45,340 nucleotides of DNA from a virus (Duplodnaviria > Heunggongvirae > Uroviricota > Caudoviricetes): IMG/VR virus record IMGVR_UViG_2537561977_000033, one strand, 5' to 3'. Position 1 is the stretch's first letter. Each line of letters opens with the position of its first letter. Shown in pieces: positions 1,285 through 36,790 of the stretch. A program made the translations under genes and the position numbers. Below the pieces are notes generated by a model. That model made no database searches. It saw only the letters and a program-made list of their open reading frames with translations, and was not told the origin of the DNA.

Positions 1285-1887
1285 AATTCACAGGTGTTTT
1301 TTCCCATCCTGTGGTTTCCTTGGCGTTTTCTAGGTTTTTTCAGATAGTTGCATTTTTTAAAAAGCATCCTAAGTTCGATCTCAGTGTCTATCTGGGGCCT
1401 ATTTCTGTCCCATATATGCCCCAAAAAAACTCCCCAACAGATAAGTAGCTTTTTCATGGATTTATGCGTAAAATCAAGAACGGCTGGAAATCATTCAATA
1501 CTCACACTATCGAAAAATTTACCAGCCAACCGCAGCACGTTCTTGCATAAGGCGTGTCTGCGGTTTTTCAACTATTCAGATACATCACTCCCATCACATT
1601 CATTCCTCCGCATCAAAGGCATATAGGCTATATCACCTTGATATTTTTCTTTTTCAGATAAAAACTGTTATCTATGTATACTTTTAAACCCAATCCGTGT
1701 AGAGTCTCTGCATAAGATAGTTTGCAGTTGCCGCTTCAGCTTGCGCCATAAATCGCCTGATTTTTGCTGCCACCTGTTAGCATTCCTGTATACCTGAAAC
1801 GACAATGTTTATCTACGAACTTTAAGAACACCCAAGATAAAAATTGTCAACTATATCATATATAACACATTACTAATTCGAGGCTAT

Positions 1888-2303: not shown

Positions 2304-2591
2304 TATAATAAACTTACTTTTTTATCATTTTTCCACTTTAACAACATTTTGCTCCACTTTTCCACGACCAAACAACTTGAAATCTGGTTAAAATAACACG
2401 CAACACTATTCTTCTTCCTTGAGTCCGCCCGGAACTCGAAAAACAAACCGAGTTAAAGCCATTTTTCACAAAATCGATTTTGGGTTTCACCAAAATTACG
2501 GGGTTGCATACGCATTCGTTTATTTTCGAACGTGTAGGTAATGCTGCCAACTTACTGATTTAGTGTATGATGGTGATTTTAAGGTGCTTGC

Positions 2592-2867
2592 GTGGCTTCC
2601 ATTTCCATCAGATGTCCTTCCTGCTCCGCTACTGAAGGCGTGGTGCGTAACGGCAAAAGCACTGCCGGACATCAGCGCTATCTCTGCTCTCATTGCCGTA
2701 AAACATGGCAACTACAGTTCACTTACACCGCCTCTCAGCCCGGTACGCACCAGAAAATCATTGATATGGCCATGAATGGCGTCGGATGTCGCGCCAGTGC
2801 ACGCATTATGGGCGTTGGCCTCAACACGGTTTTACGTCACTTAAAAAACTCAGGCCGCAGTCGGTAA
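2592..2867 (+). CDS. insA: IS1 InsA, 91 aa
   Basis: [43 protein letters not shown]... matches IS1 InsA from memory. Confidence 0.85.
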
Positions 2868-3289
2868 CCTCGCGCATACAACCGGGCAGTGATGTGATTG
2901 TCTGCGCTGAAATGGACGAACAGTGGGGCTACGTCGGTGCTAAATCACGTCAGCGCTGGCTGTTTTACGCGTATGACAGGATACGGAGGACGGTTGTGGC
3001 GCACGTCTTCGGTGAACGCACTCTGGCCACACTGGAGCGTCTTCTGAGCCTGCTGTCGGCCTTTGAGGTCGTGGTATGGATGACGGATGGCTGGCCGCTG
3101 TATGAATCACGCCTGAAGGGAAAGCTGCACGTTATCAGCAAGCGTTACACTCAGCGCATTGAGCGACATAATCTGAATCTGAGACAACATCTGGCAAGGC
3201 TGGGACGGAAGTCACTGTCGTTCTCAAAATCGGTGGAGCTGCATGACAAGGTCATCGGGCATTATCTGAACATAAAACACTATCAGTAA
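2786..3289 (+). CDS. insB: IS1 InsB reading frame, 167 aa (normally made as InsAB' by frameshifting)
   Basis: [16 protein letters not shown]...[13 protein letters not shown]... matches IS1 InsB; overlaps insA in another frame. Confidence 0.85.
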
Positions 3290-3395
3290 GTTGGAGTCAT
3301 TACCAACGTGTACATACAAATATGCACAAAAATAATCATAATTATTTTCTGAGATGCATTATGATATGAACACCAATTTCGTATAGAGTCTCACT

Positions 3396-3986
3396 ATGTC
3401 TCGAATTTTTGCTTACTGTCGGATATCAACGCTGGATCAGACCACCGAAAATCAACGCCGGGAAATCGAAAGTGCAGGTTTTAAAATCAAACCTCAGCAA
3501 ATAATCGAAGAACACATTAGCGGCTCAGCAGCAACCAGTGAGCGTCCTGGTTTTAACCGGTTGCTTGCTCGCCTGAAATGTGGTGATCAATTGATTGTGA
3601 CAAAACTGGATCGCCTTGGTTGTAATGCAATGGATATCAGGAAAACAGTGGAACAACTGACCGAAACAGGTATCAGAGTGCATTGCTTAGCATTGGGGGG
3701 CATTGACCTGACCAGTCCAACAGGAAAAATGATGATGCAAGTAATTTCAGCAGTCGCTGAATTTGAACGAGACCTTTTACTTGAACGCACTCATTCCGGG
3801 ATAGTAAGAGCCCGCGGCGCAGGGAAACGTTTTGGTCGACCACCTGTGTTAAATGAAGAACAGAAACAGGCGGTATTCGAACGAATTAAGTCAGGTGTAA
3901 GTATAAGTGCCATTGCCCGGGAATTCAAAACCTCGCGGCAAACCATTTTAAGAGCCAAAGCAAAACTTCAGACACCTGACATATAA
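3396..3986 (+). CDS. pin: Pin/Gin/Hin-family serine DNA invertase, 196 aa
   Basis: [20 protein letters not shown]... with the catalytic Ser in the YCRIS motif and a C-terminal HTH; matches Pin of E. coli cryptic prophages. Confidence 0.85.
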
Positions 3987-4082
3987 AAATAATCTCGGTG
4001 TGAGATGCTTTACGTCTTCCAAGCCCCCTTCCTTGCCGTAAATGGAAAGATACATCTAATTATAGAATTTATATGTTTTACC

Positions 4083-4658
4083 CTACGGCAGTGCTGGCCA
4101 TTCAATATCCTGTGCAGTTGACGTATCAACACGGTTCAGCAATACCCGATACTTTTTCCATGCTTCCAGCAACGAGATTTCTTCCTCCGTTGCAATTTCC
4201 AGATCTGCAGCATCCTGAAGCGGCGCAATATGCTCACTGGCTACCTGCATCAGGTTGTTTTTTGTTTCTTCCGCCTCCCGGATCCGGAACAGTTTTTCTG
4301 CTTCCGTATCCTTCACCCAGGCTGTGCCGTTCCACTTCTGAAACTCCCCTTCCGGCGATAACCAGGTAACATTTTCCGGTAACGGACCGAGTTCAGAAAT
4401 AAATAACGCGTCGCCGGAAGCCACGTCATAAACCGTTTTACCCCGATGATCTTCAACGAGATGCCACGATGACTCATCACTGTTGAAAACAGCCACGAAG
4501 CCAGCCGGAATATCTGGCGGTGCAATATCGGTACTGTTTGCTGGCAGACCTGTATGAGGCGGAATATATGCATCACCTTCACCAATAAATTCATTAGTTC
4601 CGGCCAGCAGATTATAAATTTTTATGGTCCGTGGTTGTTCACTCATTCTGAATGCCAT
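4083..4658 (-). CDS. tfa: tail fiber assembly protein, 191 aa
   Basis: Immediately downstream of the fiber gene with start/stop overlap at 4656-4660; sequence matches remembered TfaQ/lambda Tfa. Confidence 0.8.
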
Positions 4659-6313
4659 TATGCAAGCCTCACAATATAGTTAAATGCGATGTTTTTGACG
4701 GTGTTTTCCGCGTTACCAGCAGCGTTAACGGTGATGGTGTGTCCATGTGAACCAATCGCAACGGAGTGCGTATGAGCACCAATACCGACAGTATGTGCAT
4801 GTGCGCCTGCGCTTGCAGCAGTACCGGACAGCGAGTGGGTATGAGCACCATCTGATGATGTCTTCCCTGCATTACGAGTCTGGCCACTACCGCTTGTTGT
4901 GCTCATAATCCCCGCGCTTAGATTTGAAATCGCGGTATAACCATTAGGGAAAATGCTCGTGTTCGTGCCACCAAATGCACCGGAACTCTTGTGTTGGTGC
5001 GCACCGGCACTATTTGCGGTCCCGCTAATACTATGGGTATGCGCCCCGGTGTTATTCGTGGATTTGGTTCCGTAATCAAACGACGATGTGGTTTTCGTCC
5101 CCAAATCCGTACTGGATGCGCTGGCGCTGTGGGTGTGCGATTTAATGCCGTCCTGTTCCTGAGTTAATACGGCCCGACCACTGGCGGGCTTGCCCTTAAT
5201 CGTCCAGCCACGCATATCAGGGATCACGCCTGACGGATAAGCAACTGCAAGTTTCGGGTATGCAGATTTGTCAAAAGTCTGCCCCTGCATCAGGGCATAA
5301 CCAGACGGAACGGTATCTGATGGCCACGGGATTGGTGCACCGACTGGATAAAACTCTGCAGGAGGATGAGCCGAGGTGTAAAGCTGCGCCCACGGCGACC
5401 AGTTTGCGTCGGTCGTATCCCGTCGTGAACGAATAAATGCCGGAGCATGAGCACCGCTTGTACCACTCCAGCCGATGAGTAACTCACCTTCGCCAACGGC
5501 TGTCATCCCTTTCAGGTGAATGATATTTCCATACGCTGTTGGATATCCGTTGTTATACACCTCGTATAACTCAAGACCTGCTGCCCCCTGCGTATTGTCT
5601 GTCAGCGCGGTTACCCGACCTTTTGAAGCCAGATTAACTGATGATACTGCTGTTCCACCTGACGGTAACGCCCCGATCTCTGATGCCGTTGGCTTATTTC
5701 TGGAGTTATAGTCCCTTCGCCAGCCAGGTGAATAATCTGTTCCGTGATTAATATAGGTAAACTGGGCGTTAGTTGTTCCACCACCAGTGGAGGTGGTCGG
5801 TGTGGTAATGCGGATCGTCATCGCTGACTTTATCCCCATTACTTCAATGACAGCTCCGGCGAGATGAATATTACCGCAGTCAGTATCAGTAATGATTTTA
5901 TTATTGCCATAAGACCAGGACCCCTTGCACATCCAGTAGGGATGGTTAAATGCTCCCTGAGAATCCAGCCACTCGATAAACTGTGCAGTCGTCCAGTTTC
6001 CTGTTGTTGTGCTTACTGACCCACCGAAGGCACGGCAGGCACCAATATTTTTCGTAAAGGTATCTTTGCCAGGGATATCCGCACCGTTCTGATCTTTCTG
6101 CAGACGTTTCTCAGCATTGTCATTGGCTGCTTTTACTGCCTTTGGCGTTGCCGCCAGCGTTTCAGACGTGCTGTTGGTCGCGCTGCTTAACTGGATTATC
6201 CCTTTGTGCTGTCGTTGCATCCTGTGCGGTGTATTTCCCGTTAGCCAGGTCATACGCGGCCTTAACGGCTTTTGGCGTTGCCGCCTGTGACTCGGAAGTG
6301 CTGTTGGTCGCAC
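4658..6313 (-). CDS. stf: side tail fiber, C-terminal distal part; frame differs from the upstream stf part, real translation start unclear
   Basis: C-terminus ...[40 protein letters not shown] matches lambda Stf; carries the conserved box [26 protein letters not shown] near its N-terminus; first ~35 codons look like out-of-frame read-through. Confidence 0.7.
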
Positions 6314-6335
6314 TACTGAGCTGGACTATCCCCTT
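6141..6335. repeat. two direct copies (~64 bp each, ~130 bp apart) of the conserved tail-fiber recombination box
   Basis: 6141-6204 and 6271-6335 align with about 15 mismatches and one 1-nt length difference; both encode ...[11 protein letters not shown]...ATPKAVKAA in different frames. Confidence 0.8.
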
Positions 6336-7736
6336 TTTCGTCGTGCTCGCATCCTCAAGCGCCACGGCGGATGCAATATCCTCTGCCCGTTTTGCCGCTG
6401 TCTCGGCGCGCGTTGCCGCGGTTTCTGCCGTACTTTTGCTCTGTGCTGCCGCTGTCGCACTGCCAGCAGCCTCTGTCGCCTTCGTGGATGCTGTCGTGGC
6501 GCTGCCCTTCGCTGCTGACGCCTGTCTGGTCGCCTCATCTTTTGAAGCTGACGCCGATGATGCCGATGAAGCCGCCGAACTGGCGGACGATGCGGCAGCC
6601 GTTTTTGAGGATTCTGCGCTGGTTTCCGACGCTTTCGCGTTCGTCTCGGATGTCTTCGCTGCGGAAGCAGACCTCGCTGCTGCACTGGCCTGTTCAGTGG
6701 CTTCGCCAGCCTTCGTTGTGGCTGTTGAAGCAGACGAGGCGGCACTTTCTGCCGACTTTCCGGCAGCGGTGGCACTGGCTGAGGCCTGCCCGGCACTTGT
6801 TGACGCGGTACTGGCAGATGATGCAGCCGCTGTTTTTGAGCCTGCCGCAGCTGAGGCACTCTGTCCCGCTGCCGTTTCAGAAGACCTGGCGTTCGTCTCG
6901 GACGTCTTTGCCGCCTTCGCGGAATTTCCTGCCGCCGTTGCCGAGGAAGCGGCACTACTGGCGCTTGATGATGCGTTCGTTTCTGATGATTTCGCTGCCT
7001 CTTTTGAGGCCGCCGCATCCCGGGCTGAGGTGGCAGCTTCTGACGCCTTTGTGGTCGCTGCGGATGCAGAAGTGGCTGCAGATTTTTGTGACGCTGCCGC
7101 ATTCGTTTCTGACGTTTTCGCCGCACCGGCACTGGTAGCTGCCGCGCTTTTTGAGGACTCTGCAGCGGCAGCACTTTTTGATGCTTCAGTAGCCTTTGTT
7201 GATGCCGTTCCTGCGCTGGAAGACGCTGACTGAGCCGACGTCGCGGCCTGCCCGGCTGATGTGCTGGCTGCACGTGCTGAGCCTGCAGCATCAGTCGCAT
7301 GGGTTGCCGCCTCACGGGCTGATGTGCCGGCATCGCCGGCTGACTTCTTCGCGGCTGCCGTGTTCTGTGCCACCGCGGACGCGTTACGCGCCACCTCTTC
7401 CACCATCAGCTCAAAACGGCGCAGTGCCTCCGGACGGGCATCATCCTCCGTCATGGCACCGAGAAAATCATTCAGCGTACCGGGTCGGGAATCTTCATAC
7501 ACGGTGATGGTCCCGGCATGTGACGGCGGGAATCCTTCCACCAACAGAATAACGCTGTACTGACCGTACTCAACGTCCATACTGTAACGCCCGGCTTCAT
7601 CCGGATTTTCTGAGGCCAGCGTGTTCACCACCACCGTGGTGCTGTTACGTTTTGCTTTCAGCTGGATTGTGCAGTTCTGTACCGGTTTTCCTGTGCCGTC
7701 TTTCAGTACACCTGAAATCTTTACTGCCATATTCAC
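6162..7736 (-). CDS. stf: side tail fiber, N-terminal proximal part, 524 aa, Ala/Ser-rich repeats
   Basis: N-terminus [37 protein letters not shown]... matches lambda Stf; ends shortly after the conserved box, inside the second copy of the repeat. Confidence 0.75.
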
Positions 7737-7794: not shown

Positions 7795-8394
7795 TCAGAA
7801 TTTATAACCGACACCCACGATGAAACTGTTGGTACGCCAGTCACCGCTGCCGGAGCCTTCATAAGCGACGTCAACGGCCACGGATTCGGTCGGGTTAAAC
7901 TGCACGCCAGCTCCCCACGCCAGAGACGTGTTGCTGTGGCGACCGTCATCACTTCCGGTCAGCACATCGTGCGTTTTCCCCTTGTTGTCAGTTACGCGGA
8001 TATAATCTCCGGAGAAAGTCGAAACACGGCTGTAAGCCATACCCGCCATCGCATACGCGCTGAACCATTCATTCACGCGCACAGACGGCCCCGCCATCAC
8101 GCTGAACCAGCGGTTACGCACGGAATCTTCATGCCAGCGGGTATCGCTGTAATGCGTTTTTTGCTCATCTTCAGCGTTGGCATAACTGAATGACGTAATC
8201 AGCCCCAGCGTGTCCGTAAACTCATAACGGTATTTCACGTTAATCCCGTTCAGATTATCGCTGCCGGGAGCGTTCGTACGGGCATGAAGATACCCTGCGC
8301 TCAGTGTGGCCTGCTGCTCAGACGCCCATGCAGGCGCACCGAATACGGCCAGACAAATGGCTGCGGACAAAATGGCGGCATAAAGTTTACGCAT
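7795..8394 (-). CDS. lom: Lom outer-membrane protein (Ail/Lom family), 199 aa, with signal peptide
   Basis: [24 protein letters not shown]... ends in a beta-barrel motif ...GVGYKF; lambda Lom position between J and stf. Confidence 0.8.
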
Positions 8395-8418
8395 AATTAC
8401 CTCTCGCTTTTCTGCAAT

Positions 8419-8441
8419 AAAAAGGCGCCATTTCTGGCGCC
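8419..8441 (-). terminator. candidate rho-independent terminator after J
   Basis: Minus strand GGCGCCAGAAATGGCGCC followed by TTTTT. Confidence 0.4.
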
Positions 8442-8460
8442 CGTATATGGGTTATAAAAT

Positions 8461-11400
8461 TCAGCTGATACTGATGCCTGCGGTGGCTTTCTTCATCACC
8501 ACAACCAGCAAATCGCTGATACTTGCTGTGGGATACCAGTCATTTACCAGCCATGCTGACACCGAAAACTCCAGCGTCATGTGGCCGTGACCAGCTGGCA
8601 TATCAATAACACCACTGTAAATCAGCGTATTATCCAGCGCGGTACGGTTATAAATTTCAGCACCATTTTTCTTCACTATCAGGCGGCATGACGAATAAAT
8701 ATCGTTATTCTCCCGCTCATGTTTAGCGCCGCAGAATGCCACCGCTGGAATAACAATTTGCCTGTCAAAAGGCTGATCGTCATAAATCCTGACGGTAATG
8801 GTCCCTGATGGCCACCGCTCCGGTGCCCGGGAGTCCCGCGGGAAAGCCTTACCCACTGTTTTGACAATATCGCCTTCAATCTGATTGGCTGACAGTTTCC
8901 CCTTAATCTGACAGTTCTCATTAATCGTGACGTTGTTGAGCGTCCCGGAGTTCGCGTTCACGTTACCGCTGATATCGGCATTTTTCGCCGTCAGCCGTCC
9001 GCCAGGTGTCAGGGAAAATGCCGGAGGATTACCGCCGCTGGTAATGGTGGGGGCCGTCAGGCGTTTCAGGAACACGTCGTTCATGAATATCTGATCGCCC
9101 TGACCAACAAACATCGGTTTTGTGTTGCCATTCGCAGGATTAACCATCGCAATCCTGTCCGCCGCCAGCAGCACCTGACTCTGCATGCCGTCAGGGGTGT
9201 TCTCAATACCGGCACCAATACCCGCGATATAAAGGCGTCCGTCCTGCATCTGCTGCAGCTTCACAGCCCACATGCTGTTCAGGTTATTATTTGTATCAAC
9301 CTGAACCTTCTGTATCTGCTGAATTGCCGCACTCTGGTCTTCCAGTTTCTTATTGACGGTCTGCGTGATTTCATTGCTGACATCCGTAATGGACGTCCTG
9401 ATTTCAGCCAGGTCAGGCGCAAGCTGACCGTTATCAATCTGCGTCCACAGCTCCTGAGCCAGATGGGTTTTCCCTATCTCGCCTTTGAAAAAATCCAGAT
9501 AGCCGGATGCATCATCACTCGGCTGACCAACAGCCTCCACGAATGCCGATTTGCCAACGGTGTTCACACTGCGAACGTAAAAATAATAATCATGGCCCGG
9601 CCTGATATTGATACTGGCGGCTATCCAGTACAGCGCCGTGCCAAGATAGCGGGCTGTGGTTTCAACCTGCCTGATATCGGTAATCCGCTTTTCCGAGAAC
9701 CAGAACTCAAACTGTACCGTCGGGTCATAAACGGCAAGATGCGGCGTGGCGGTTATCTGAAAATAGCCCGGCGTCAGCTCAATCCGCGACGGCGCTGCCG
9801 GTGCGGCAATCCGGAACGATACCGACGCCGGATCGCCCTGCTGCCCCCACGCATTTACTGCCCGGACTGTCAGCCTGTAGTTCCCCAGCGCCAGTTGTGT
9901 GAAGCGGTAAGTGGTTTCCGTCGTCCGGGCCGTGCTGACCAGCCGCTCACTGCCGTCATCCGCTGTTACGGTCAGACGGAGCAGGAAGCTCACGCCCTTC
10001 ACCACCTTCGGCGTGTCCCAGCGCGCCAGCACCTGATATTCCCCGCTGTCTGCGGTGACTTCGGCAGTCAGGTGCTGCACCGCTGGCGGCGTGACACCAT
10101 TCACCGTGCCGCTCTGGTCGCCGTCAAAGTGCGCCCCGTTATCCACGATGGCCTCTTTTTCCGGTACATGCTGCACGGCGGTGATGGCATACGTGCCGTC
10201 ATCGTTCTCACGGATACTCACGCAGCGGAACAGGCGCTGGCGCAGCGTCGGCAGCTTCAGCCCCCATACGCTGTATCCGGCAACGCCGTCAGGAACACGG
10301 CTCACTTTTACCTTCACGCCGTCGGTGACGGACTGGACCTCCACGCTGACCGGATTGCCTCTTCCGTCAACCAGGCTTATCAGCGTGGTACCGGAGGATG
10401 GCAGCGTGATTTCACGGTCGAGCGTCAGCGTCCGGGTCTGGCTGTTCACCGCCAGCACGCGCCCGCCGGTACTGATACCGGCATAGTCATCATCGCAGAT
10501 TTCAATGACATCGCCCGGTACATGGCGAAGCCCTTCAGCACCCACGCTGAAGTCCACGGTCTGCGTTTCCAGCAGTTCCGTTTTAATCAGCCACAGCCCG
10601 GCGCGGTGTGCCTGCCCCCGGCTGGTACAGCCAAAGGCATCCATCTTCGTGACGTTACGACCGTAACGGGCAATGGCCTGCGTATCTTCAACAAGCTCTG
10701 TCGCCGTCTCCCAGCCGTTGTTCGGGTCAATCCAGTTCACCTCAACGGCATTATGGCGGTCCTTCAGGGCGCTGAAGCTGTAGCGGAACGGCGCGCCATC
10801 ATCCGGCATCACCACATTACTGCGGTTATAGGTCCACGCCTTATCCGACGGTCGGTCCTGCACGAACGTCAGCGTCTGCCCGTTCCATACCGGCATACAG
10901 CGCATCGCCGAGCAGAAATCACTGAGCACATCCCACGCCTTACGCTGTGTGGTCAGGTACGCATTACAGGTGATGCGCGGCTCCGTGCCGCCAAAGCCGT
11001 CCGGCACTGACTGGTCGCAGTACTGGCCGATGACATACAGCGCCCATTTATCCACATCCGTCGCACCAAGACGTTTCCCCATGCCGTAGCGCGGATGGGT
11101 CAGCATATCCCACAGACACCAGGCCATGTTGTTGCTGTATGCCGGTTTAAACGTTCCGTCCCAGATACCGCTGTATTGCCGCGTCTGCGGGTTATAGTTC
11201 GACGGCACCTGCAGAATGCGCCCGCGAAGATGATAATTACGACTCACCTGCTGGCTGCCGAACTGCTCCGAGTCCACCTGCACGCCGACCAGTGCCGTGT
11301 TCGGGTAGCCCTGTTTCACATCGATGATTTCGGTGTATGACGACCAGAGCGTTTTGTTCTGCAGCTGGTCTGTGGTGCTGTCCGGCGTCATCCTGCGCAT

Positions 11401-11940
11401 CCGGATACTGAACGGGCGCGGCGGCAGGTTATCCACCACCACAGAGGCCAGGTACTGCGAGGTGGTTTTGCCTTTAATGGTGATGTCTTTTTCCGTCACC
11501 CAGCCACCGTTACGTTGTATCTGAACCAGCAGGCGGACTTCCGATGGATTCCTGTCCCCCTTTGAGGTGGTTTCCACCAGTGCCTGCACACCGAAGGTAA
11601 AGCGCAGACGGTCGATGTTTGCAGACGTGATGGTCCGGGTGATCGGCGTGTCGTATTTCACTTCCGTACCGAGCACCGTCTCGGATCCGGAGGATTCAAA
11701 TCCCTCCGGCGGTGTCTGCTCCTGCTCACCGGCCCGGAACACCACCGTGACACCGGATATGTTGGTATTCCCCTCAGTGTCCAGCACCGGCGTACTGTTC
11801 AGCAGCACGCTTTTTAAGCCATCCACCGGACCTTCAACCGGCCCTTCGCTGATGGCATCGATCACACTCAGCAACTGCGTGGACTTCAGGTTGTCCTTCG
11901 CTTCGCGCGGGGTATGCCCCTTACTGCTGCCTTTACCCAT
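8461..11940 (-). CDS. J: tail tip / host specificity protein J, 1159 aa, with a C-terminal domain unlike lambda J
   Basis: First ~900 aa near-identical to remembered lambda J ([24 protein letters not shown]...); last ~250 aa diverge. Confidence 0.9.
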
Positions 11941-11999
11941 TCCTCACGCTCCATAAACGACAAAACCGCCCGCAGGCGGTTTCACATAAACATTTTGCA

Positions 12000-12671
12000 T
12001 CAGCGACCAATCACCACAACCTGACCACCGTCCCCTTCGTCTGCCGTGCTGATCTCCTGAGAAACCACACGTGACCCCACGCGCATTTCACCGTACAGAA
12101 CGGGCAGAACATTGCCCTGGGCAACCATGTTATCCAGTGAGGAGAAATAGGTGTTTTGTTTGCCGTTATCCGTTGTCTGTGTACGGGGAGTTCTGGTTTT
12201 CGGTGCCAGCATCTGCGCCACACCACCGAGCACCATACTGGCACCGAGAGAAAACAGGATGCCGGTCATACCACCGGCCCCAATGGCTGCCCCCCATGCT
12301 GCAAGGGTGGCTCCGGCGGTAAAGAATGATCCGGCAATGGCGGCAGCTCCCAGGACAATCTGGAATACGCCCCCTGACTTGGCTCCGGCGACTCTGGGAA
12401 CAATATGAATCACAGCGCCGTCAGGCAGAGTCTCATGTAACTGCGCCGTTAACCCGGACGTGCTGACGTCCCGCCCGGCAATCCGTACCTGATACCAGCC
12501 GTCGCTCAGTTTCTGACGAAACGCCGGGAGCTGTGTGGCCAGTGCGCGGATGGCTTCAGCCCCCGTTTTCACACGAAGGTCGATGCGGCGACCAAATCGT
12601 TGTAAATCCCCGTAAAGGCAGATGCGCGCCATGCCCGGTGACGCCAGAGGGAGTGTGTGCGTCGCTGCCAT
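12000..12671 (-). CDS. I: tail assembly protein I, 223 aa
   Basis: MAATHTLPLASPGMARICLYGDLQRFGRRIDLRV... matches lambda I. Confidence 0.85.
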   Translation of the reverse strand: MAATHTLPLASPGMARICLYGDLQRFGRRIDLRVKTGAEAIRALATQLPAFRQKLSDGWYQVRIAGRDVSTSGLTAQLHETLPDGAVIHIVPRVAGAKSGGVFQIVLGAAAIAGSFFTAGATLAAWGAAIGAGGMTGILFSLGASMVLGGVAQMLAPKTRTPRTQTTDNGKQNTYFSSLDNMVAQGNVLPVLYGEMRVGSRVVSQEISTADEGDGGQVVVIGR

Positions 12672-13312
12672 TTGTCGGTATACCTCTCTCGTTTGCTCAG
12701 TTGTTCAGGAATATGGTGCAGCAGCTCGCCATCACCACAGTAAATGGCGGCATGATTCGGCACCGATGAACCAAAACAGCACAGCAGCACATCGCCCGGT
12801 TGTGCTGATGACAACGGCACCTGATACAGCCCTGTGGCCTCCAGATTATCCAGATAGAGATTCTGACCGTGACGCCACCAGTCATCCTCGCGATGAAAAT
12901 CCGGCATCTCAATCCCCGCCAGATGATAAGCATCCCGGAACAGCGTGTAACAGTCCGTCACCCCGTGTTCAAAGCGCCGCCCGGTAAGATGTGGCACACA
13001 GCGGAACTTGTGAATCGCCCCCCGGCAGACCAGCCACCACGGCAAATCACTCTGCACCTGCAGCCGCCGGTCAGCCTCACTCAGCCAGGGCAGACCACCG
13101 GGGTGGCTGTGGACCAGCGCCACAATCTCACCCTGCATTTCTGCCTGCAGCCAGTCCTCCGGCGACATCCGGAAATAATCCTCTGGCTCACCGGAGATAT
13201 TCACGCAGGGAAAATATCTTTCCCCCTCCGGCGTGCTTACCACGAAGCCGCACGACTCCGCTGGCGCACATCGCCGGGCGTGCGCCAGAATCGCTGATTC
13301 TGTCTGTGTCAT
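12569..13312 (-). CDS. K: tail assembly protein K (JAMM/MPN plus NlpC/P60-like), 247 aa; lambda annotation may start at an internal Met
   Basis: MTQTESAILAHARRCAPAESCGF...HSHPGGLPWLSEAD (HxH...S..D JAMM-like motif) matches lambda K; overlaps I as in lambda. Confidence 0.85.
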   Translation of the reverse strand: MTQTESAILAHARRCAPAESCGFVVSTPEGERYFPCVNISGEPEDYFRMSPEDWLQAEMQGEIVALVHSHPGGLPWLSEADRRLQVQSDLPWWLVCRGAIHKFRCVPHLTGRRFEHGVTDCYTLFRDAYHLAGIEMPDFHREDDWWRHGQNLYLDNLEATGLYQVPLSSAQPGDVLLCCFGSSVPNHAAIYCGDGELLHHIPEQLSKRERYTDKWQRRTHSLWRHRAWRASAFTGIYNDLVAASTFV

Positions 13313-13317
13313 GGGAT

Positions 13318-14015
13318 TTACTGCGAAAGTTTGTTAATGGAAAGGAAGCCGCCAAAGTTGCCGACGTTATTGCGGAACTTACAACCGCTCAGGCATTTGC
13401 TGCATTTATCCTTCGTGATATCGGACGTTGGCTGGTCATATTCATCCGCGACCGCCGGACCGTGATAACCGCACTCATCGCCGCGATAGGTCCAGGTGCA
13501 GGTGTTGGCCAGCATGATACGTCCCGGAAAAACAGCGCCATCCGTTTCCGTCGGCGTGGACAGTACAAAGGAGGCACTCACCGCGCTCAGTTCGCTGCAC
13601 TGCTCAATGCGCCAGCGGCTGATCACCTCCTGCTCCGGATCGGCATAACTGTTTCCGTTGACGAAGTTCACCGCATCCAGAAAACGGGCGTAAACCTTAC
13701 GCCGGACCACCGTTCCGCCGACCAGGCTCTGCATATCTTCCGCCATCCCGGTGACCATACCGTACAGGTTAGAAACCGTCAGCGTGGGGCGCGTACTGGT
13801 GCCTTTGCCATTCAGTTCAAAACCGCTCCCCTGAATGGGATACGGCTGATACTGTCGCCCCTGCCAGGTGACCGGCTCACCTTTTTCGTTCTGCTCATTA
13901 CAGAAAAATAACGTTCTCCACCGACCTCTGTCAGATCGATTTCCCAGAGCACCACGCTGGCCGACTGCTCCGCACGGGTGCATTCATTCAGTGTTTCCTG
14001 CCGGATATCCTGCAT
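13318..14015 (-). pseudogene. L: tail protein L with a -1 frameshift in a T-run
   Basis: N-terminal 37 aa (MQDIRQETLNECTRAEQSASVVLWEIDLTEVGGERYF) and the rest (FFCNEQNEKGEPVTWQ...KLSQ) sit in different frames; the junction is TATTTTTCTG on the coding strand, around 13904-13908. Confidence 0.75.
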
Positions 14016-14344
14016 CAGTTCACCACCTGTTTAAACTCTGCGCTGAACTCAACACGCAACATACTGACCTGCGACGACCATTTTGCGCAGATCACCTTTA
14101 TCTGCCTGTAACCATAAGGCGGCGTCCACAGAAAGGCCTTCCAGCCCCCGTGCTCAGCCAGAAACGACTCCAGCGCCGTGGCCTCCTCACGGGAGACAGA
14201 CAGCGTCACGCTGTACGTTTTCAGGTCAGCGTTCAGCCCGGCAGGCGCACGCTGGGAATAGCCATCACCAAAGCGCACCTCCCTGACGGAAGGAGCCGAT
14301 GTCACATCCATCCCGGGTTTCACTTTCCAGCGGAAGGTTTTCAT
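14015..14344 (-). CDS. M: tail protein M, 109 aa
   Basis: MKTFRWKVKPGMDV...RVEFSAEFKQVVN matches lambda M. Confidence 0.85.
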   Translation of the reverse strand: MKTFRWKVKPGMDVTSAPSVREVRFGDGYSQRAPAGLNADLKTYSVTLSVSREEATALESFLAEHGGWKAFLWTPPYGYRQIKVICAKWSSQVSMLRVEFSAEFKQVVN

Positions 14345-15159
14345 CGTCCACCTCCGGAGAACAGACCACCATCGCGCATCTGTGCCTGGATTTCATCACG
14401 GGCACCCTTGCGGGCCATGTCATACACCGCCTTCATCATCTGTGGACCTGGCAGACCATTCGTACCGTCGTTCTGAATCACCACGTTGTTGTTCTGCTCA
14501 AACCTGATACCCTCTGAACGCCGCATTTGCGCCGGACTTCCGGTGCCACCGACATAACCGCCGGTGGCATAGCCGCGCATCAGCCGGTAGAGATTTCCCA
14601 CGCCAATCCGGCTGGTTGCCTCCTTCGTGAAGACAAATTCACCACGGTGAACAATCCCCGCTGGCTCATATTTGCCGCCGGTTCCCGTAAATCCTCCGGT
14701 TGCAAAATGGAATTTCGCCGCAGCTGCCTGAATGGCTGTACCGCCTGACGCTGATGCGCCGCCACCAACAGCCCCGCCAATGGCGCTGCCAATACTCCCG
14801 ACAATCCCCACCATTGCCTGCTTAAGCAGAATTTCTGTCATCATGGACAGCACGGAACGGGTGAAGCTGCGCCAGTTCTGCTCACTGCTGGTCAGCATCG
14901 CTGCCATATTCTGCGCAATACCATCAAAGGTCTGCGTGGCTGCACTTTTAACCTGCAACATACTGTCCGTGGCACTCTCTTTCCACTCGCTCCAGCCGGA
15001 CCTGAGGCCTGCCATCCAGCTCCCGCGAAGCAGGTCTTCAGCCGCCCAGGTCTTTTTCTGCTCTGACATGACGTTATTCAGCGCCAGAGGATTATCGCCA
15101 TACTGTTCCTTCAGGCGCTGTTCCGTGGCTTCCCGTTCTGCCTGCCGGTCAGTCAGCCC
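14341..15159 (-). pseudogene. H: tape measure protein H, C-terminal ~270 codons only; 5' end removed at the IS boundary
   Basis: Open frame runs without stops from the IS left end at 15159 down to the stop at 14341; the supplied ORF (first Met at 15069) covers part of it. Lambda H is about 850 aa. Confidence 0.8.
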
Positions 15160-16453
15160 CTGAGGAATCCCCAGAAAACAAGACAGGCATAGTGAGATGT
15201 GATCTAATTGATTGTGCTAACAATTTCAAGGAGATCACCACTATGCCTGCACGTTCATTATGCCAAAATTTCCTTAACAACATACTGGCCCCTTTGCATC
15301 TTTACCGTCAAAAATCACTGATTGACGCAACTAATGCTGTAATAAATGGCGCTTCCCTCACACTTACCAGTATCGGGCGTCATTTAACCGGTACGGCATC
15401 AGTTAAAAACAAAATAAAGCGGGTGGATCGACTGTTGGGGAATCGACATTTGCAAAATGAGGTTTCCACCATTTTTCAGCGAATTACCCAAAAGATTACG
15501 CGGGGAATGTCTCGTGTTGTGATACTCATTGACTGGAGTGCTTATCATGCCTCTCGTTTTCAGCTTTTGCGGGCAAGCCTGGCATGTGACGGGCGTTCTT
15601 TACCGTTGATGAGTTGTGTCGTTCCATCATCACAGACAGCGAATGCAGATGTACATGAGCGTTTTCTGGAATCGCTTGCTGAGTGCTTTTCCCCCGGGAC
15701 TGATGTCATTGTTATTACAGATGCCGGTTTTCAGGGGCGATGGTTCCAACAGCTCCGCTCCCGTGGCTGGACCTATATTTGCCGGGTACTGGGCAATCAT
15801 TATTACAATGTTGGTAATGGCTGGGAAAAGGTGTCGGACTCAGGCACAAAAGCATCAACGACAGCAATTTATTTAGGTGAAGGCCTGCTGGGTCGAGATA
15901 AAAATGCACAACATGAAGGGCATTTTTATCTTTATAAAAGTAAGCCTAAAGGTCGTAGATTTAAACGCTCGAAGGAAAGAGCAACCAGACCATCGGTGAC
16001 GGCTAAAGCTCGTACTGCCGGGAAATCACCATGGTTTATTTTCACAAACAGTACTGAGTTCTCGCCAAAACAGGTAATGAAATTATACAGCCGTAGAATG
16101 CAAATTGAGCAAAATTTCAGGGATGAAAAAAATCCTCGCTGGGGATTTGGACTACGGTTTGGTGCCAGTCATTCATCCGGGCGGGTCACGGTATTGAGTC
16201 TGATCGCAACATTAGCCAGTATCATTATGTGGTTAAGCGGTTTCAGCCTGGAAAACAAAGGGATACATCATAAATATCAGGCAAATACAGTGAAGCACAG
16301 GCGAGTCATCTCGTTATTAAAACTGGCGGAGAATGTGATTCGACATTCTCCACTCATACTAAACACACTGTCACTTGACGCAGGGCTGAAAGTTCTACAG
16401 CAACGGTATACCAATATGATAATGGTTTACTAAATTTTCTGGGGATCCCTCAG
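15160..16453 (+). mobile_element. IS4-family (IS10-like) insertion sequence, ~1.29 kb, no flanking direct repeat
   Basis: Terminal inverted repeats CTGAGGAATCCCCAGAAAA (15160-15178) and TTTTCTGGGGATCCCTCAG (16435-16453) resemble IS10 ends (CTGA.GATCCCC); flanking 9-mers differ (AGTCAGCCC vs GGCAAATCC). Confidence 0.8.
15192..16433 (+). CDS. IS4-family DDE transposase, 413 aa, IS10 transposase-like
   Basis: Motifs KRVDRLLGNRHLQNE, YKSKPKGRRFKRS, YSRRMQIEQNFRDEK and HKYQANTVKHRRV parallel remembered IS10 transposase; partial identity only. Confidence 0.85.
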   Translation: MRCDLIDCANNFKEITTMPARSLCQNFLNNILAPLHLYRQKSLIDATNAVINGASLTLTSIGRHLTGTASVKNKIKRVDRLLGNRHLQNEVSTIFQRITQKITRGMSRVVILIDWSAYHASRFQLLRASLACDGRSLPLMSCVVPSSQTANADVHERFLESLAECFSPGTDVIVITDAGFQGRWFQQLRSRGWTYICRVLGNHYYNVGNGWEKVSDSGTKASTTAIYLGEGLLGRDKNAQHEGHFYLYKSKPKGRRFKRSKERATRPSVTAKARTAGKSPWFIFTNSTEFSPKQVMKLYSRRMQIEQNFRDEKNPRWGFGLRFGASHSSGRVTVLSLIATLASIIMWLSGFSLENKGIHHKYQANTVKHRRVISLLKLAENVIRHSPLILNTLSLDAGLKVLQQRYTNMIMVY

Positions 16454-16695
16454 GGCAAATCCCCCCGGTTAACTTTGATTCTGGCCTGCGGATTTTTGAC
16501 CGTGGCCCTTTTCAGCCTGGCCCTTTCCTTTACCAGTTTCCGGCGTACCTTTGTCTCACGGGCAACCTGTGACGCAGACTGCGATATCGCGGATGAAGCA
16601 ACGCGGTTAATGGCCATTGCGGCGGCACCGGGCACCGCCGTTTTGCTGATACGGCTGAGGTTTTCAACGGCCTGCTCAAGACCTTTTATGGCCAT
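16454..16695 (-). pseudogene. Z: tail protein Z, N-terminal ~80 codons, truncated at the IS
   Basis: MAIKGLEQAVENLSRISKTAVPGAAAMAINRVASS...KVNRGDLP matches the lambda Z N-terminus; the frame runs into the IS right end. Confidence 0.7.
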
Positions 16696-18537: not shown

Positions 18538-18591
18538 AAAAAATCCCGTAAAAAAAGCCGCACAGGCGGCCTTTAGTGATGAAGGGTAAAG

Positions 18592-25520: not shown

Positions 25521-25814
25521 TTTGTCGCTCCATTCGTTTGCTCTTCACTTGCGGCTAAAAATATAACGTCAAATCACTCAGCATGAAAGAGTGAAAGTTT
25601 CAGCGCGTTTCCCTTACATAATCTGTCGTTTGTATTCTCTTCAGGCATACCGGAAAGACTAGGTATTGTCACACAACCAATACCATCGACAATCGAGATT
25701 TATATCTATTCGGTAATGTTTAAATATAACAAAACCCCGTAAAACGAGGTTTATGGGTAATTTGTATTGTTGAATAGCATCTGATGAGAAATTGATGCTA
25801 ATACTATAAACATA

Positions 25815-25988
25815 CTAGATTAAATCAATCTTGATATCATAGCTTTCAAGACCAGTCATTTTTTCCGTGCAGTAAACTGGATACTGGTAACTTCTTTCCC
25901 GGTCTTTTTCTTAAGCTCAATGATTTTTTTGTTATATATTCAGAAATATCTGCTTCTGTTTTTGTTTTAACTCTTCAATGTTCATCAT
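25815..25988 (-). pseudogene. gnsB: GnsA/GnsB-family gene remnant with two frame changes
   Basis: Three frames give MMNIEELKQ / KTEADISEYITKK / IIELKKKTGKEVTSIQFTARKKMTGLESYDIKIDLI, together resembling GnsA/B (MNIEELKKQAETEI...NKNTGKEV...FTAREKMTGLESYDVKI); breaks lie at A-runs. Confidence 0.45.
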
Positions 25989-26159: not shown

Positions 26160-26340
26160 AATTCAAGAGTCTCATTGCTGCTTCCAGAATTTCTTCTGAA
26201 GTTACATGTCGATCCGCTGCTACATAAATGACTTTATGATCTCCGGTCAGAGATGGAAACCCTGCGGCCATTACAGTAAGGTGTGTTTTTCGCCATTTGG
26301 ATATTCACGCATGATGGTGTTAACTCCAGTCATCGCTGGC
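26160..26340 (-). pseudogene. unidentified small gene remnant split over two frames
   Basis: ...PAMTGVNTIMREYPNGEKHTLL(stop) followed in another frame by MAAGFPSLTGDHKVIYVAADRHVTSEEILEAAMRLLN. Confidence 0.2.
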
Positions 26341-26656
26341 ACTACCACTGCTGGTTCAGAGTTAAAAAAACTATGATTTTTTCATGATGTTACCGTAGTA
26401 TGTGAGTATCCATCGAATAGACACCAAGCAAAAAAGCTCCCGAAGGAGCCTTCATTTTCACTTTTTTAAATCCAACGACAGACGGCTGGCATTTAAGTAT
26501 TGTGAAATATTATCAAATGTAATCATCATTGATTTACAAAAGATACATTTTGCCCCGAAAGGATTCATGTCAGAAACATCAAAAGATGATGTTCTATACT
26601 GGGAACCATGACAACACGGGCATCTAAAGTGAATATGGTTTGTAATATTGTCTACC

Positions 26657-27230: not shown

Positions 27231-28253
<1,023 letters not shown>

Positions 28254-29175: not shown

Positions 29176-29537
29176 TTGATTTTATTAGTAACAAGTATTT
29201 TTATATTTTAATAATATATTTAAAGCAGATAATAAAAAACCCGCCTGAGCGGGTTTGAGATTGTGGTGCTTTTTGTGGGAGTCATCCACTTACGCACTTT
29301 GTTTTGCCATGCCAGCAGTTAGCTTCTGCTGTAAAACTATTCATGCAGCAAACCTGCACTTCACCACAATGGTTAGCATACTTTTCCTGATTAAGATTTT
29401 GCCAAATATGCTAGCCATTGTTTCATGTATTGGACCTCCTTACTTTTTATTAAAGAGATCCAATATTCACTACTCTGTCCGTATCTCTACTCAGGCATCA
29501 GCCTTCTTCGTTATCGTATACAGACGAGCGATGAATT

Positions 29538-29753: not shown

Positions 29754-30052
29754 TCTACATTCCTTAACTTGAGCCTTTCGGCATAAATGGTTTGCATAAC
29801 AGAAACGACTTCGTACTTAATTGGAGAGACTCAAAGAAGGAATAAGTGAATAACACCTGAAATGAGAACTGCTTTAGTAAACTACTTCGTATATCGTCTG
29901 TTCTTCAAACCGACGCAATCATTAACGCATAGTTGAACATATGAAGCAATGTTTATTTTAGACATCCAGCCGTCTTCAACCCCATCAAAAACTATAGCTT
30001 TCTTCAGGAACGTGTGTATAGTGCGCCAAGTTATCAGTATTAAGGAATTTTT

Positions 30053-30556: not shown

Positions 30557-30584
30557 CAAAACCCGCTCATCAGCGGGTTTTCTA
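30557..30584 (-). terminator. hairpin terminator candidate (tR'-like) downstream of the putative late promoter
   Basis: Perfect stem AAACCCGCT/AGCGGGTTT with a 5-nt loop; T-rich on both sides. Confidence 0.4.
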
Positions 30585-33100: not shown

Positions 33101-33315
33101 CAGAATCCTTCCGGATAATTAGCTCTCCCCTTTAAGGGACCATCCCTCTTCTCCCTGCGCGCTACTTAAGTATTTTTGATTCTATTCCGGCACCGTCCAG
33201 AACTTCAAACGCGTTGAAAATAAAACAAAAACCCGCCGAAGCGGGTTAAGTGCGGGTGCGTTGAGGATGCCTGCCACATCAGAGGTGGCGAGGGATTTCT
33301 CCCTCGCCGGGTCTC

Positions 33316-34601: not shown

Positions 34602-34918
34602 ATGTCTGTCACAATTCAGGGAAATACCTCAACCGTTATTTCAAACAACTCCGCCCCGGAAGGAACATCAGAAATAGCCAAAATCACAAGACAAATTCAG
34701 GTGCTGACTGAAAAGCTTGGGAAAATCTCATCGGAAGAGGGGATGACGACACAGCAGAAAAAGAAATGGCTGCATTGGTACAGAAGCAAATTGAAAGCCT
34801 CAGGGCTCAACTGGAGCAGTTGTTAAGGCAGCAGGCAGAGAAAAAGAATAAAGACGCGACAGTTCAGCCTGATAAAAAGAAGAGAAAAAGACGATACAAA
34901 TACCGCTGGCACCATTGA
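34602..34918 (+). pseudogene. flxA: FlxA-like protein with an apparent -1 frameshift near an A-run
   Basis: Frame 1 MSVTIQGNTSTVISNNSAPEGTSEIAKITRQIQVLTEKLGKISSEEGMTTQQKK then frame 2 MAALVQKQIESLRAQLEQLLRQQAEKKNKDATVQPDKKKRKRRYKYRWHH; junction at CAGAAAAAGAAATGG. Confidence 0.45.
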
Positions 34919-34945
34919 TATTTACGTCTAAGTGACAGCCGTATT

Positions 34946-35129: not shown

Positions 35130-36790
35130 GTCACTTTTGTGGGGACAGTCCACAAAACTGCCAACTTCCGCTTCTTGCTCTTAGCGGACATTAGCATAGG
35201 CTATTTACCATAACGCCTCATTACGCGCACCGCCCAGACTGACTCAGCGCGTTTCTGGCATATCCCCGGTAAAACAAGTAACAACCCCCCCGAAAATGAA
35301 CACCAGAAACGCGACTTAAGAATCTACCCTATGAATGGATATGCACTCAACCGAATCGATCTTGGTTTCAATCTATTTTATCGGGATCAGGCTTCTTTTT
35401 AGGTAACTTCGGGGGCTTAACTTGCTGATGACTTTGCGTTCGGCGCGTAAGCCAGGGATGGTCAGCTTTAGATTTAACATAGTATTTTGAGCGTAAATCA
35501 ATACGGGCATTATCCACTCGTTCATGGACACTCTTTTCATCATCCAGTGGTATAGGCTCCGGGCCATCAACATACTTTTCCCAGCCCAGCGCTTTCCCGT
35601 CATACAGAACGTTAATTTCACCGTCAAAGTTCTCACATACAGTAACAACCGAATGCCTAAGTCGATATCCCCGGCCCTCACTGCGTACCTGAAACGCACT
35701 GCTTTTGTACTGGAAAGTGAGATTTTTAGACAGAACGCGCTTCGCCTGTAGGCTGAAGATATAACCCAGTTCCTCTTCAGAATGGTGCACATCAAGATGA
35801 GCATTATCAGTAGTACGAGGCGACGTAGCGAACCGGTTGTTATAGGCTTCAATAAAGGTCGGCAACCATGCATTTGCTGTTTCAATATCACTGATATTCT
35901 GAAGCCGCATTTCTTTGACCAGCCTGTCCTGTAGTGTCTGATTGGCGCGCTCTACCCGCCCTTTTGCCTGCGGGCTGTTGGCATGGATTGGCTCGATGCC
36001 CAGTGTCTTTATCGCACGAGTGAACTGGGTCAGCTCACCTTCCCGCTCTGGGTTATTTACCCTGAATATACTGTGTCTATCAGAGTAGAGAGCGAGCGGT
36101 ACGCCATGATCATTAAGGTAACCCCGGAGGGTTTCCATGTAAGCCCGGGTTGTTTCAGCAGGCACAAAACGCAACGCCATCAACGCACTGGTGGCATCAT
36201 CAATGAAAACGATCAGTGTACATCTGGGGCCTCGATTTTCAAACCAGTCATGCGGTGAGCCATCAATCTGGATCAGTTCACCGTAAGATGGTCGTCGCAT
36301 GCGGCGTTGATATATACGGGCAATTTTACGACGGCGTTCACGCCATAACCCCTCTTCTATCATCCACTTTCTGAGAGTTTCAACGGATAAAGATAAACCG
36401 TGTATCTCGCGCAATTTTTCGCACGCAAACGTAGGTCCAAAATCAGCGTAACGGCCTTTGAGGAGTGAAATTACTGTTGCTCTGAATTCAGTAGAAAAGG
36501 AATTATTAGGACGCTTTCCACGTCGGTGGGAAACCAGACCAGAAGGCCCTTCATTTCTATACCGTTGCACCAGACGTTTAACCTGCCGAATAGAAATGCC
36601 AATGCGTGCCGCAGCTTGTTCCTGAGTAATATGTCGATTAATTGACTCCTGAATAATCTGAAGTCGGTGGAGTTCCTTATGACTCATCGTAACAGTCTCT
36701 TTGATCATGAAAAATCCCCCAGAGAATTGTCTGGGGACATTTTAGAATGGTTCAAAGGGGACATTACAGCTTGGTGTTAACAATAGCCTG
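35130..36790 (-). mobile_element. insertion sequence carrying an integrase-fold DDE transposase (IS481/ISNCY-like); boundaries approximate
   Basis: Transposase gene 35368-36708; palindromic GGGGACA-containing sequences on both sides (35136-35160; 36711-36770); exact ends and target duplication not resolved. Confidence 0.4.
35368..36708 (-). CDS. DDE transposase with N-terminal HTH and rve integrase core, 446 aa
   Basis: MIKETVTMSHKELHRLQIIQESINRHITQEQAAARIGISIRQVKRL... (HTH), then candidate catalytic D (IQIDGSPHDWF), D (LYSDRHSIF) and E (AKGRVERANQTLQDRL). Confidence 0.8.
   Translation of the reverse strand: MIKETVTMSHKELHRLQIIQESINRHITQEQAAARIGISIRQVKRLVQRYRNEGPSGLVSHRRGKRPNNSFSTEFRATVISLLKGRYADFGPTFACEKLREIHGLSLSVETLRKWMIEEGLWRERRRKIARIYQRRMRRPSYGELIQIDGSPHDWFENRGPRCTLIVFIDDATSALMALRFVPAETTRAYMETLRGYLNDHGVPLALYSDRHSIFRVNNPEREGELTQFTRAIKTLGIEPIHANSPQAKGRVERANQTLQDRLVKEMRLQNISDIETANAWLPTFIEAYNNRFATSPRTTDNAHLDVHHSEEELGYIFSLQAKRVLSKNLTFQYKSSAFQVRSEGRGYRLRHSVVTVCENFDGEINVLYDGKALGWEKYVDGPEPIPLDDEKSVHERVDNARIDLRSKYYVKSKADHPWLTRRTQSHQQVKPPKLPKKKPDPDKID

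Follow-up and report, generated by a model that had tools for sequence, protein, structure and literature searches.

Flow-based and early long-read sequencing chemistries under-call homopolymer length, the more so as runs become longer. In one published genome, that of Clostridium autoethanogenum, under-called homopolymers gave scores of false frameshift annotations, which resequencing proved to be errors (PMC4687164). The short runs described here resemble that case in being single-base deletions, all in one direction and mostly in runs of 5-8, which split genes lying in otherwise conserved sequence; they differ in that the case for them is built entirely from comparison with relatives. The closest described prophages are the Qin-type cryptic prophage of E. 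coli K-12 and the nearly intact copy of it in ATCC 8739, and the closest described gene is L of phage lambda, which lies between M and K and encodes a minor tail, or tail-tip, protein.

The window, by which we mean the whole stretch of 45,340 nucleotides that was analysed (IMG/VR record IMGVR_UViG_2537561977_000033), is 100% identical to the E. coli LT-68 draft contig ADUP01000059.1 (GCA_000188815.2) over all 20,666 bases compared, and position x of the window is contig position 61709 + x. LT-68 is listed as an ETEC strain in PMC4038620. The sequence of the window is that of a lambdoid prophage inserted in ydfJ, at the Qin site. Its left end carries ydfJ', ydfK, pinQ and tfaQ, and its right part carries nohA, ynfO, cold-shock genes (cspI/B/F), relBE, hokD, flxA, dicABC, an exonuclease gene, xis and int. 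The insertion site is common to this copy, the K-12 prophage and the ATCC 8739 copy, as are flanking and accessory genes, including an integrase adjoining rspB. Unlike these Qin-type comparators, however, the window copy has kept a complete lambda-like head module, has lost Z'-U-V-G-T-'H at an ISEc60-associated deletion, and also bears an IS1 and an ISNCY-family element.

The IS1-family transposase ORF (2786-3289; NF033558) lies in an insertion of ~768 bp relative to ATCC 8739, at ~2537-3304 between ydfK and pinQ; the two alignment breakpoints share 8 bp there, as would fit a target-site duplication. The ISNCY-family (IS1202/ISEsa1-like) transposase ORF is full-length (446 aa; 35368-36708, minus strand) and lies between ydfW and a DUF977 gene; its counterpart in STEC276 carries a 'partial' annotation.

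Measured against lambda, the prophage has kept the head genes from nu1 to FII intact, together with M, K, I and J. The counterpart of lambda 8220-12283 is absent, and with it Z from codon 82, U, V, G, T and residues 1-580 of H. The features at this junction are:

14341..15162, minus strand: truncated tape-measure gene H, residues 581-853 only (tblastn; TIGR01541, tape_meas_lam_C)
15157..16455, plus strand: ISEc60 (IS4 family) in place of lambda 8220-12283, 99.8% identical to annotated ISEc60 copies (NF033591, IS4 transposase)
16453..16695, minus strand: truncated gene Z, codons 1-81 only

Lambda homology on the H side stops at window position 15160, which is lambda 12284, and the 21-nt terminal inverted repeats of ISEc60 lie at 15158-15178 and 16435-16455. 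A 16-nt extension of the ISEc60 match into Z was considered and set aside as chance similarity of the flanking sequence. Reading the flanks of ISEc60 gave no target-site duplication, which points to a deletion junction; conceivably, the Z'-IS-'H junction might instead be an assembly collapse between two IS copies. A second assembly with the lineage-specific, IS-truncated H' product was sought, and the LT-68 contig is its sole carrier on record.

Essential morphogenesis genes have thus been lost by lesions independent of homopolymer length, as in a cryptic prophage. Taken at face value, a prophage with these losses could build no tail, with or without a working L. In addition, a 2-bp deletion near 6205 (~6195-6215) divides the side tail fibre gene, one 1007-aa ORF in ATCC 8739, into ORFs 6162..7736 and 4658..6313 (both minus strand); the site reads CCCTTTGTGC against CCCTTTCTGTGC, with ATCC 8739 as the sole reference. 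This deletion lies outside any homopolymer and may be a real frameshift.

Within this context, the tail genes that follow H keep the order M-L-K-I-J (tblastn map), which is likewise that of ATCC 8739 and KK05-19. The features of L and its neighbours are:

14015..14344, minus strand: gene M, intact
13318..14015, minus strand: gene L, lambda-type minor tail / tail-tip protein L, 698 nt against 699 in lambda
13812..14015, minus strand: upstream 67-aa ORF, L residues 1-37 and then 30 out-of-frame residues
13904..13908, minus strand: T5 run (A5 on the plus strand), the site of the frame break; T6 in all references
13318..13908, minus strand: remainder of L, residues 37/38-232 and stop, in a second frame
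12569..13312, minus strand: gene K, intact

Over its length, L of the window is 98.7% identical to lambda L at the nucleotide level and has a single gap. A 699-column alignment with lambda L (J02459 13429-14127) and with the intact L of E. coli 5CRE51 has the same one gap, where the window reads TATTTTTCTGT against TATTTTTTCTGT in both; as aligned, it is TA-TTTTTCTGT in the window and TATTTTTTCTGT in the two others. Besides the missing T at codons 36-38, the window differs from lambda L by eight substitutions. The run is T6 in lambda, 5CRE51, ATCC 8739 and KK05-19, and also in nine loci with the exact M allele of the window; it occupies positions 75613-75617 of the LT-68 contig.

The effect on the reading frame can be followed directly. 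The 67-aa ORF begins with the ATG at 14015, starts MQDIRQETLNEC and continues to GGERYF, after which the sequence is unrelated to L up to the stop at 13812. The second-frame ORF, one of two overlapping L-like ORFs in the ORF listing, carries FFCNEQNEKGEPVTW and runs to the normal C-terminus of L. In tblastn, lambda L residues 37-232 align at 13908..13321 with 99.5% amino acid identity and residues 1-37 align in another frame. The TIGR01600 phage_tail_L profile (224 positions) is likewise matched in two pieces, positions 2-37 (E 1.7e-5) and 28-224 (E 7.6e-87). The frame break rests on direct alignment and involves no statistical pattern, and chance is not at issue.

The initial annotation had named the gene L and had described a one-base loss in its T-run that splits it into a 37-codon N-terminal piece and a remainder. 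The name is borne out by the lambda alignment and the TIGR01600 profile, the alignment gives T5 against T6 in lambda and close relatives, and the ORFs and tblastn agree on the two pieces. In the comparison with lambda L DNA, which it had also suggested, there is a single gap, and the continuous frame needs the sixth T. By sequence, profile and synteny the gene is lambda gpL. It matches the profile of this family (TIGR01600 / PF05100) and lies in the M-L-K-I-J position; in place of the one uninterrupted ORF of ~232 codons expected of the family, the deposited sequence has a frame that shifts after codon 37. This absence of a single L ORF is probably an artefact.

A mechanical ORF of 221 aa also spans most of the gene (13318-13983, minus strand), starting from an out-of-frame ATG at 13983. 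It corresponds to EFZ55485.1, 'phage minor tail protein L' of E. coli LT-68, the first ~26 residues of which come from that ATG and are not L sequence. This second-frame product is found in one record only, EFZ55485.1.

All indels between the window and its relatives were listed, with ATCC 8739, STEC276, lambda and KK05-19 as references. Taken together, these four independent references leave the window one base short at 17 homopolymer sites, each time against every reference that covers the site, and longer at no site. The raw tally is 19:1 shorter to longer (binomial p about 4e-5), the sole longer site being the annotated Z frameshift of ATCC 8739 itself. At that site (~19093 in ATCC 8739, 16641-16644 in the window) ATCC 8739 has a 2-nt deletion of its own, and the window, lambda and KK05-19 agree. 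Besides the L run, the contracted sites are:

1423..1429: A8 to A7, intergenic
3985..3989: A6 to A5, at the pinQ stop codon
8419..8423: A6 to A5, between lom and J
11988..11990: A4 to A3, between I and J
18538..18543: A7 to A6, immediately upstream of E; three references show it
25924-25930 and 25965-25968: T8 to T7 and T5 to T4, breaking gnsB (25818-25985)
26364-26370 and 26377-26382: A8 to A7 and T7 to T6, breaking ynfN (26161-26369)
27642..27648: T8 to T7, breaking rzpQ (27234-27727)
29198..29202: T6 to T5, intergenic
29987..29991: A6 to A5, intergenic
33222..33225: A5 to A4, between rem and hokD
34758-34762, 34874-34878 and 34885-34889, plus strand: three A6 to A5 contractions in flxA

The pattern is the same whichever relative is used. 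Against ATCC 8739, there are five isolated homopolymer differences of one base, and in 5/5 the window has the shorter run; against STEC276 (99.77% identity over 17 kb), each of the six gaps (6/6) is an A/T run that has lost one base in the window, and the more divergent stretch at 25-28 kb adds further contractions of the same kind. Where lambda and KK05-19 cover these sites, they too have the longer run, and the window is the outlier. As a control, two finished sequences, ATCC 8739 and lambda, were compared over 20 kb at 3.4% divergence, and runs of at least 4 showed zero one-base length differences. Sorted by the length of the run in the reference, the contractions in the window are:

3-runs: 0/1379
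4-runs: 1/454
5-runs: 4/152, two of them natural polymorphisms
6-runs: 8/57
7-runs: 2/13
8-runs: 4/4, each exactly 7

With L set aside, 7/56 of the 6-runs, about one in eight, are contracted. The two natural polymorphisms are A4/A5 differences at 25741-25744 and 30558-30561, at which STEC276 is like the window and KK05-19 is one base longer. Runs do vary in length naturally, at a low rate and where they are short. The excess of one-base-short A/T runs is one-directional and length-dependent, and the L site belongs to it.

Contractions occur in coding and non-coding DNA alike. L, gnsB, ynfN, rzpQ and flxA are broken by contractions only, while the products of over 20 genes around them match their STEC276 counterparts at 100% identity. 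Among 1,200 complete E. coli genomes, the best matches to the flxA region are identical to the window save for the three gaps, and the three contractions are unique among the 1,200 complete genomes holding the region. In flxA itself (330 bp; 34602-34928) the net change is -3, and the frame is restored past about 40 scrambled codons.

Substitutions are few by comparison. The 17-kb block shared with STEC276 has 19 scattered SNPs and a 14-SNP patch at one edge, against 6 contractions, and its transitions and transversions number 16:17. The ratio of private SNPs to indels is taken from this block because, in the M-L-K-I block, the relatives are ~2% divergent and T5 is common to the window, E. coli DEC10F and a metagenome contig (see below). 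A mismatch-repair mutator gives mostly transitions, far more substitutions, and run-length changes in both directions. A mutator lineage is thus ruled out as the source of the short runs by the few substitutions, about half of them transversions, by changes that are all -1, and by 8-runs that are every one exactly 7.

The missing T in L is probably a homopolymer base-calling or consensus error of the LT-68 draft assembly and not a mutation of the bacterium, a reading to which we give a probability of about 0.85. A T6 run would have been under-called and deposited as T5 in the LT-68 contig, and an under-call in a coding region would mimic a -1 frameshift and split the gene. The 17 same-direction, length-dependent contractions indicate systematic homopolymer under-calling, and we infer that the sequencing method is the cause of the short runs. 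Under-call artefacts are recognized by the loss of a single base in a homopolymer (here T6 to T5), by an excess in one direction (17 against 0), by a frequency that climbs with run length, and by deviations that are not common to close relatives and ignore coding constraint; all of these are found here, and the phenomenon fits such artefacts in every respect that sequence comparison can test. Contraction of about one in eight 6-runs in this assembly, set against the great rarity of T5 in finished sequences, favours an artefact by at least an order of magnitude, and that rarity holds even if every instance is counted as real. Our figure is kept from going higher in part because L is unselected in a tail-deleted prophage; for LT-68 and DEC10F alike, moreover, the sequencing platform was not found in the searchable literature. 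The frameshift described in the initial annotation is thus true of the deposited sequence and, given the 16 further shortened A/T runs, probably wrong for the organism.

The contrary view is that one T was truly lost by -1 slippage in the T6 run after the tail module was already non-functional, which would make L a true but ordinary pseudogene, carried by a Qin-site prophage that is in decay and has tail genes deleted. Such decay has something to build on, since a prophage that is tail-defective independently of L leaves L unselected and would tolerate a real mutation: the ISEc60-associated loss of Z (from codon 82), U, V, G, T and H 1-580 does just this, and a second lesion, the 2-bp deletion outside any homopolymer, interrupts the side tail fibre gene. 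T5 is moreover found at this exact site in 15 distinct N-terminal products and in at least three prophage backgrounds. We nevertheless regard real slippage as unlikely. It must coincide with 16 other same-direction contractions in 45 kb, including 4/4 of the eight-runs and three in flxA, and almost no substitutions accompany the contractions. T5 is also very rare in finished genomes, where its exact match is an indel-ridden assembly, that of 377323_2f.

The distribution of the T5 allele bears on both of these readings. Other loci with the exact M protein of the window have T6 and an intact 232-aa L in 9/9 cases. A 36-mer with T5 has zero matches in 185,579 species-representative genomes. The exact T5 71-mer centred on the run occurs in 1/4,135 complete-genome records and in 0/109 phage records, both of which are lower bounds as the query includes the T81 variant of the window. 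The one genome is E. coli 377323_2f (NZ_CP039404.1 1690710-1708780), in which Z, U, G, H, M, K, I and J are all annotated 'frameshifted', and it follows that this assembly is indel-ridden. Its L contains the T5 71-mer and is nevertheless annotated as intact, with 699 nt, so that a compensating indel is implied close by.

Among predicted proteins, the 67-aa product falls in a cluster of 15 products of 65-78 aa, all of which leave the L frame between GGERYF and SVMS; contigs that encode T5-type products number roughly 25. Products identical to that of the window come from E. coli DEC10F (AIGU01000052.1) and from a JGI metagenome contig (3300045988), at ~10100-10112 in each locus. The flanks of these two are 95.8% and 94.2% identical to the window, respectively, and upstream of L they are 87% identical to each other. 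In both, the compared runs of at least 6 other than the L run are unchanged; in the metagenome contig these include 5/6 of the runs of length 6, and in DEC10F the L run is the only 6-run compared. The metagenome contig has further single-base differences from lambda, both +1 and -1, in T, L, K and I. T5 therefore recurs independently in at least two other prophage backgrounds, as recurrent error or as real slippage, between which the data do not distinguish for those sequences.

It seems very doubtful to us that the T6 run at codons 36-38 is a true hot spot at which slippage recurs. Were it so, resident lambdoid prophages of E. coli would repeatedly lose tail-tip assembly at this point, and the 15 truncated N-terminal products would record independent natural events and not sequencing errors.

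Two further readings would give the short run a function. In the first, full-length L is restored from T5 by programmed or leaky recoding, either through a -1 slip of tRNA-Phe on U UUU U or through transcriptional slippage, so that UAU UUU UCU is read as UAU UUU UUC UGU. A -1 slip at the U-run would, from the sequence, regenerate exactly the wild-type ...YFFCNE.... The likeness is to the programmed -1 frameshift of lambda G/GT, which also places a frame change within the lambda tail-assembly gene cluster. The G/GT frameshift, however, is conserved in relatives together with a canonical slippery heptamer, whereas the break in L is absent from relatives and has no such site: the two-ORF layout is unconserved, with essentially all relatives having T6 and a single ORF, and the 0-frame U UUU UCU fails the YYZ rule and is not a canonical X XXY YYZ heptamer. 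A 5-nt run is also far too short for efficient transcriptional slippage. As the partner tail genes are absent, the product would in any case be without use, and we consider recoding to have next to no chance of being correct.

In the second, the homopolymer would be a phase-variable (contingency) switch that toggles L and hence tail production. The lesion does lie in a homopolymer and does recur in different backgrounds, but the tract is short (6), T5 is very rare, the lengthened T7 form is found in none of the 13 T6 loci examined, and the other affected runs are scattered over unrelated genes and intergenic DNA. A switch of this kind is accordingly extremely improbable.

With under-calling in the LT-68 draft as the preferred reading, the L frameshift is most likely not a real feature, and the value of the analysis lies in quality control. 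In A/T runs of at least 5, false one-base deletions seem to occur in the LT-68 draft about once per 2.5 kb. Protein databases already include truncated 'proteins' from this draft, namely EFZ55485.1 and the 67-aa product, and such entries are unreliable. If the lesion in L were real after all, it would be an unremarkable pseudogene in a prophage already without tail shaft genes. For the biology of this strain, the apparent pseudogenes L, gnsB, ynfN, rzpQ and flxA, and by extrapolation very many others genome-wide, are not to be taken as gene decay.
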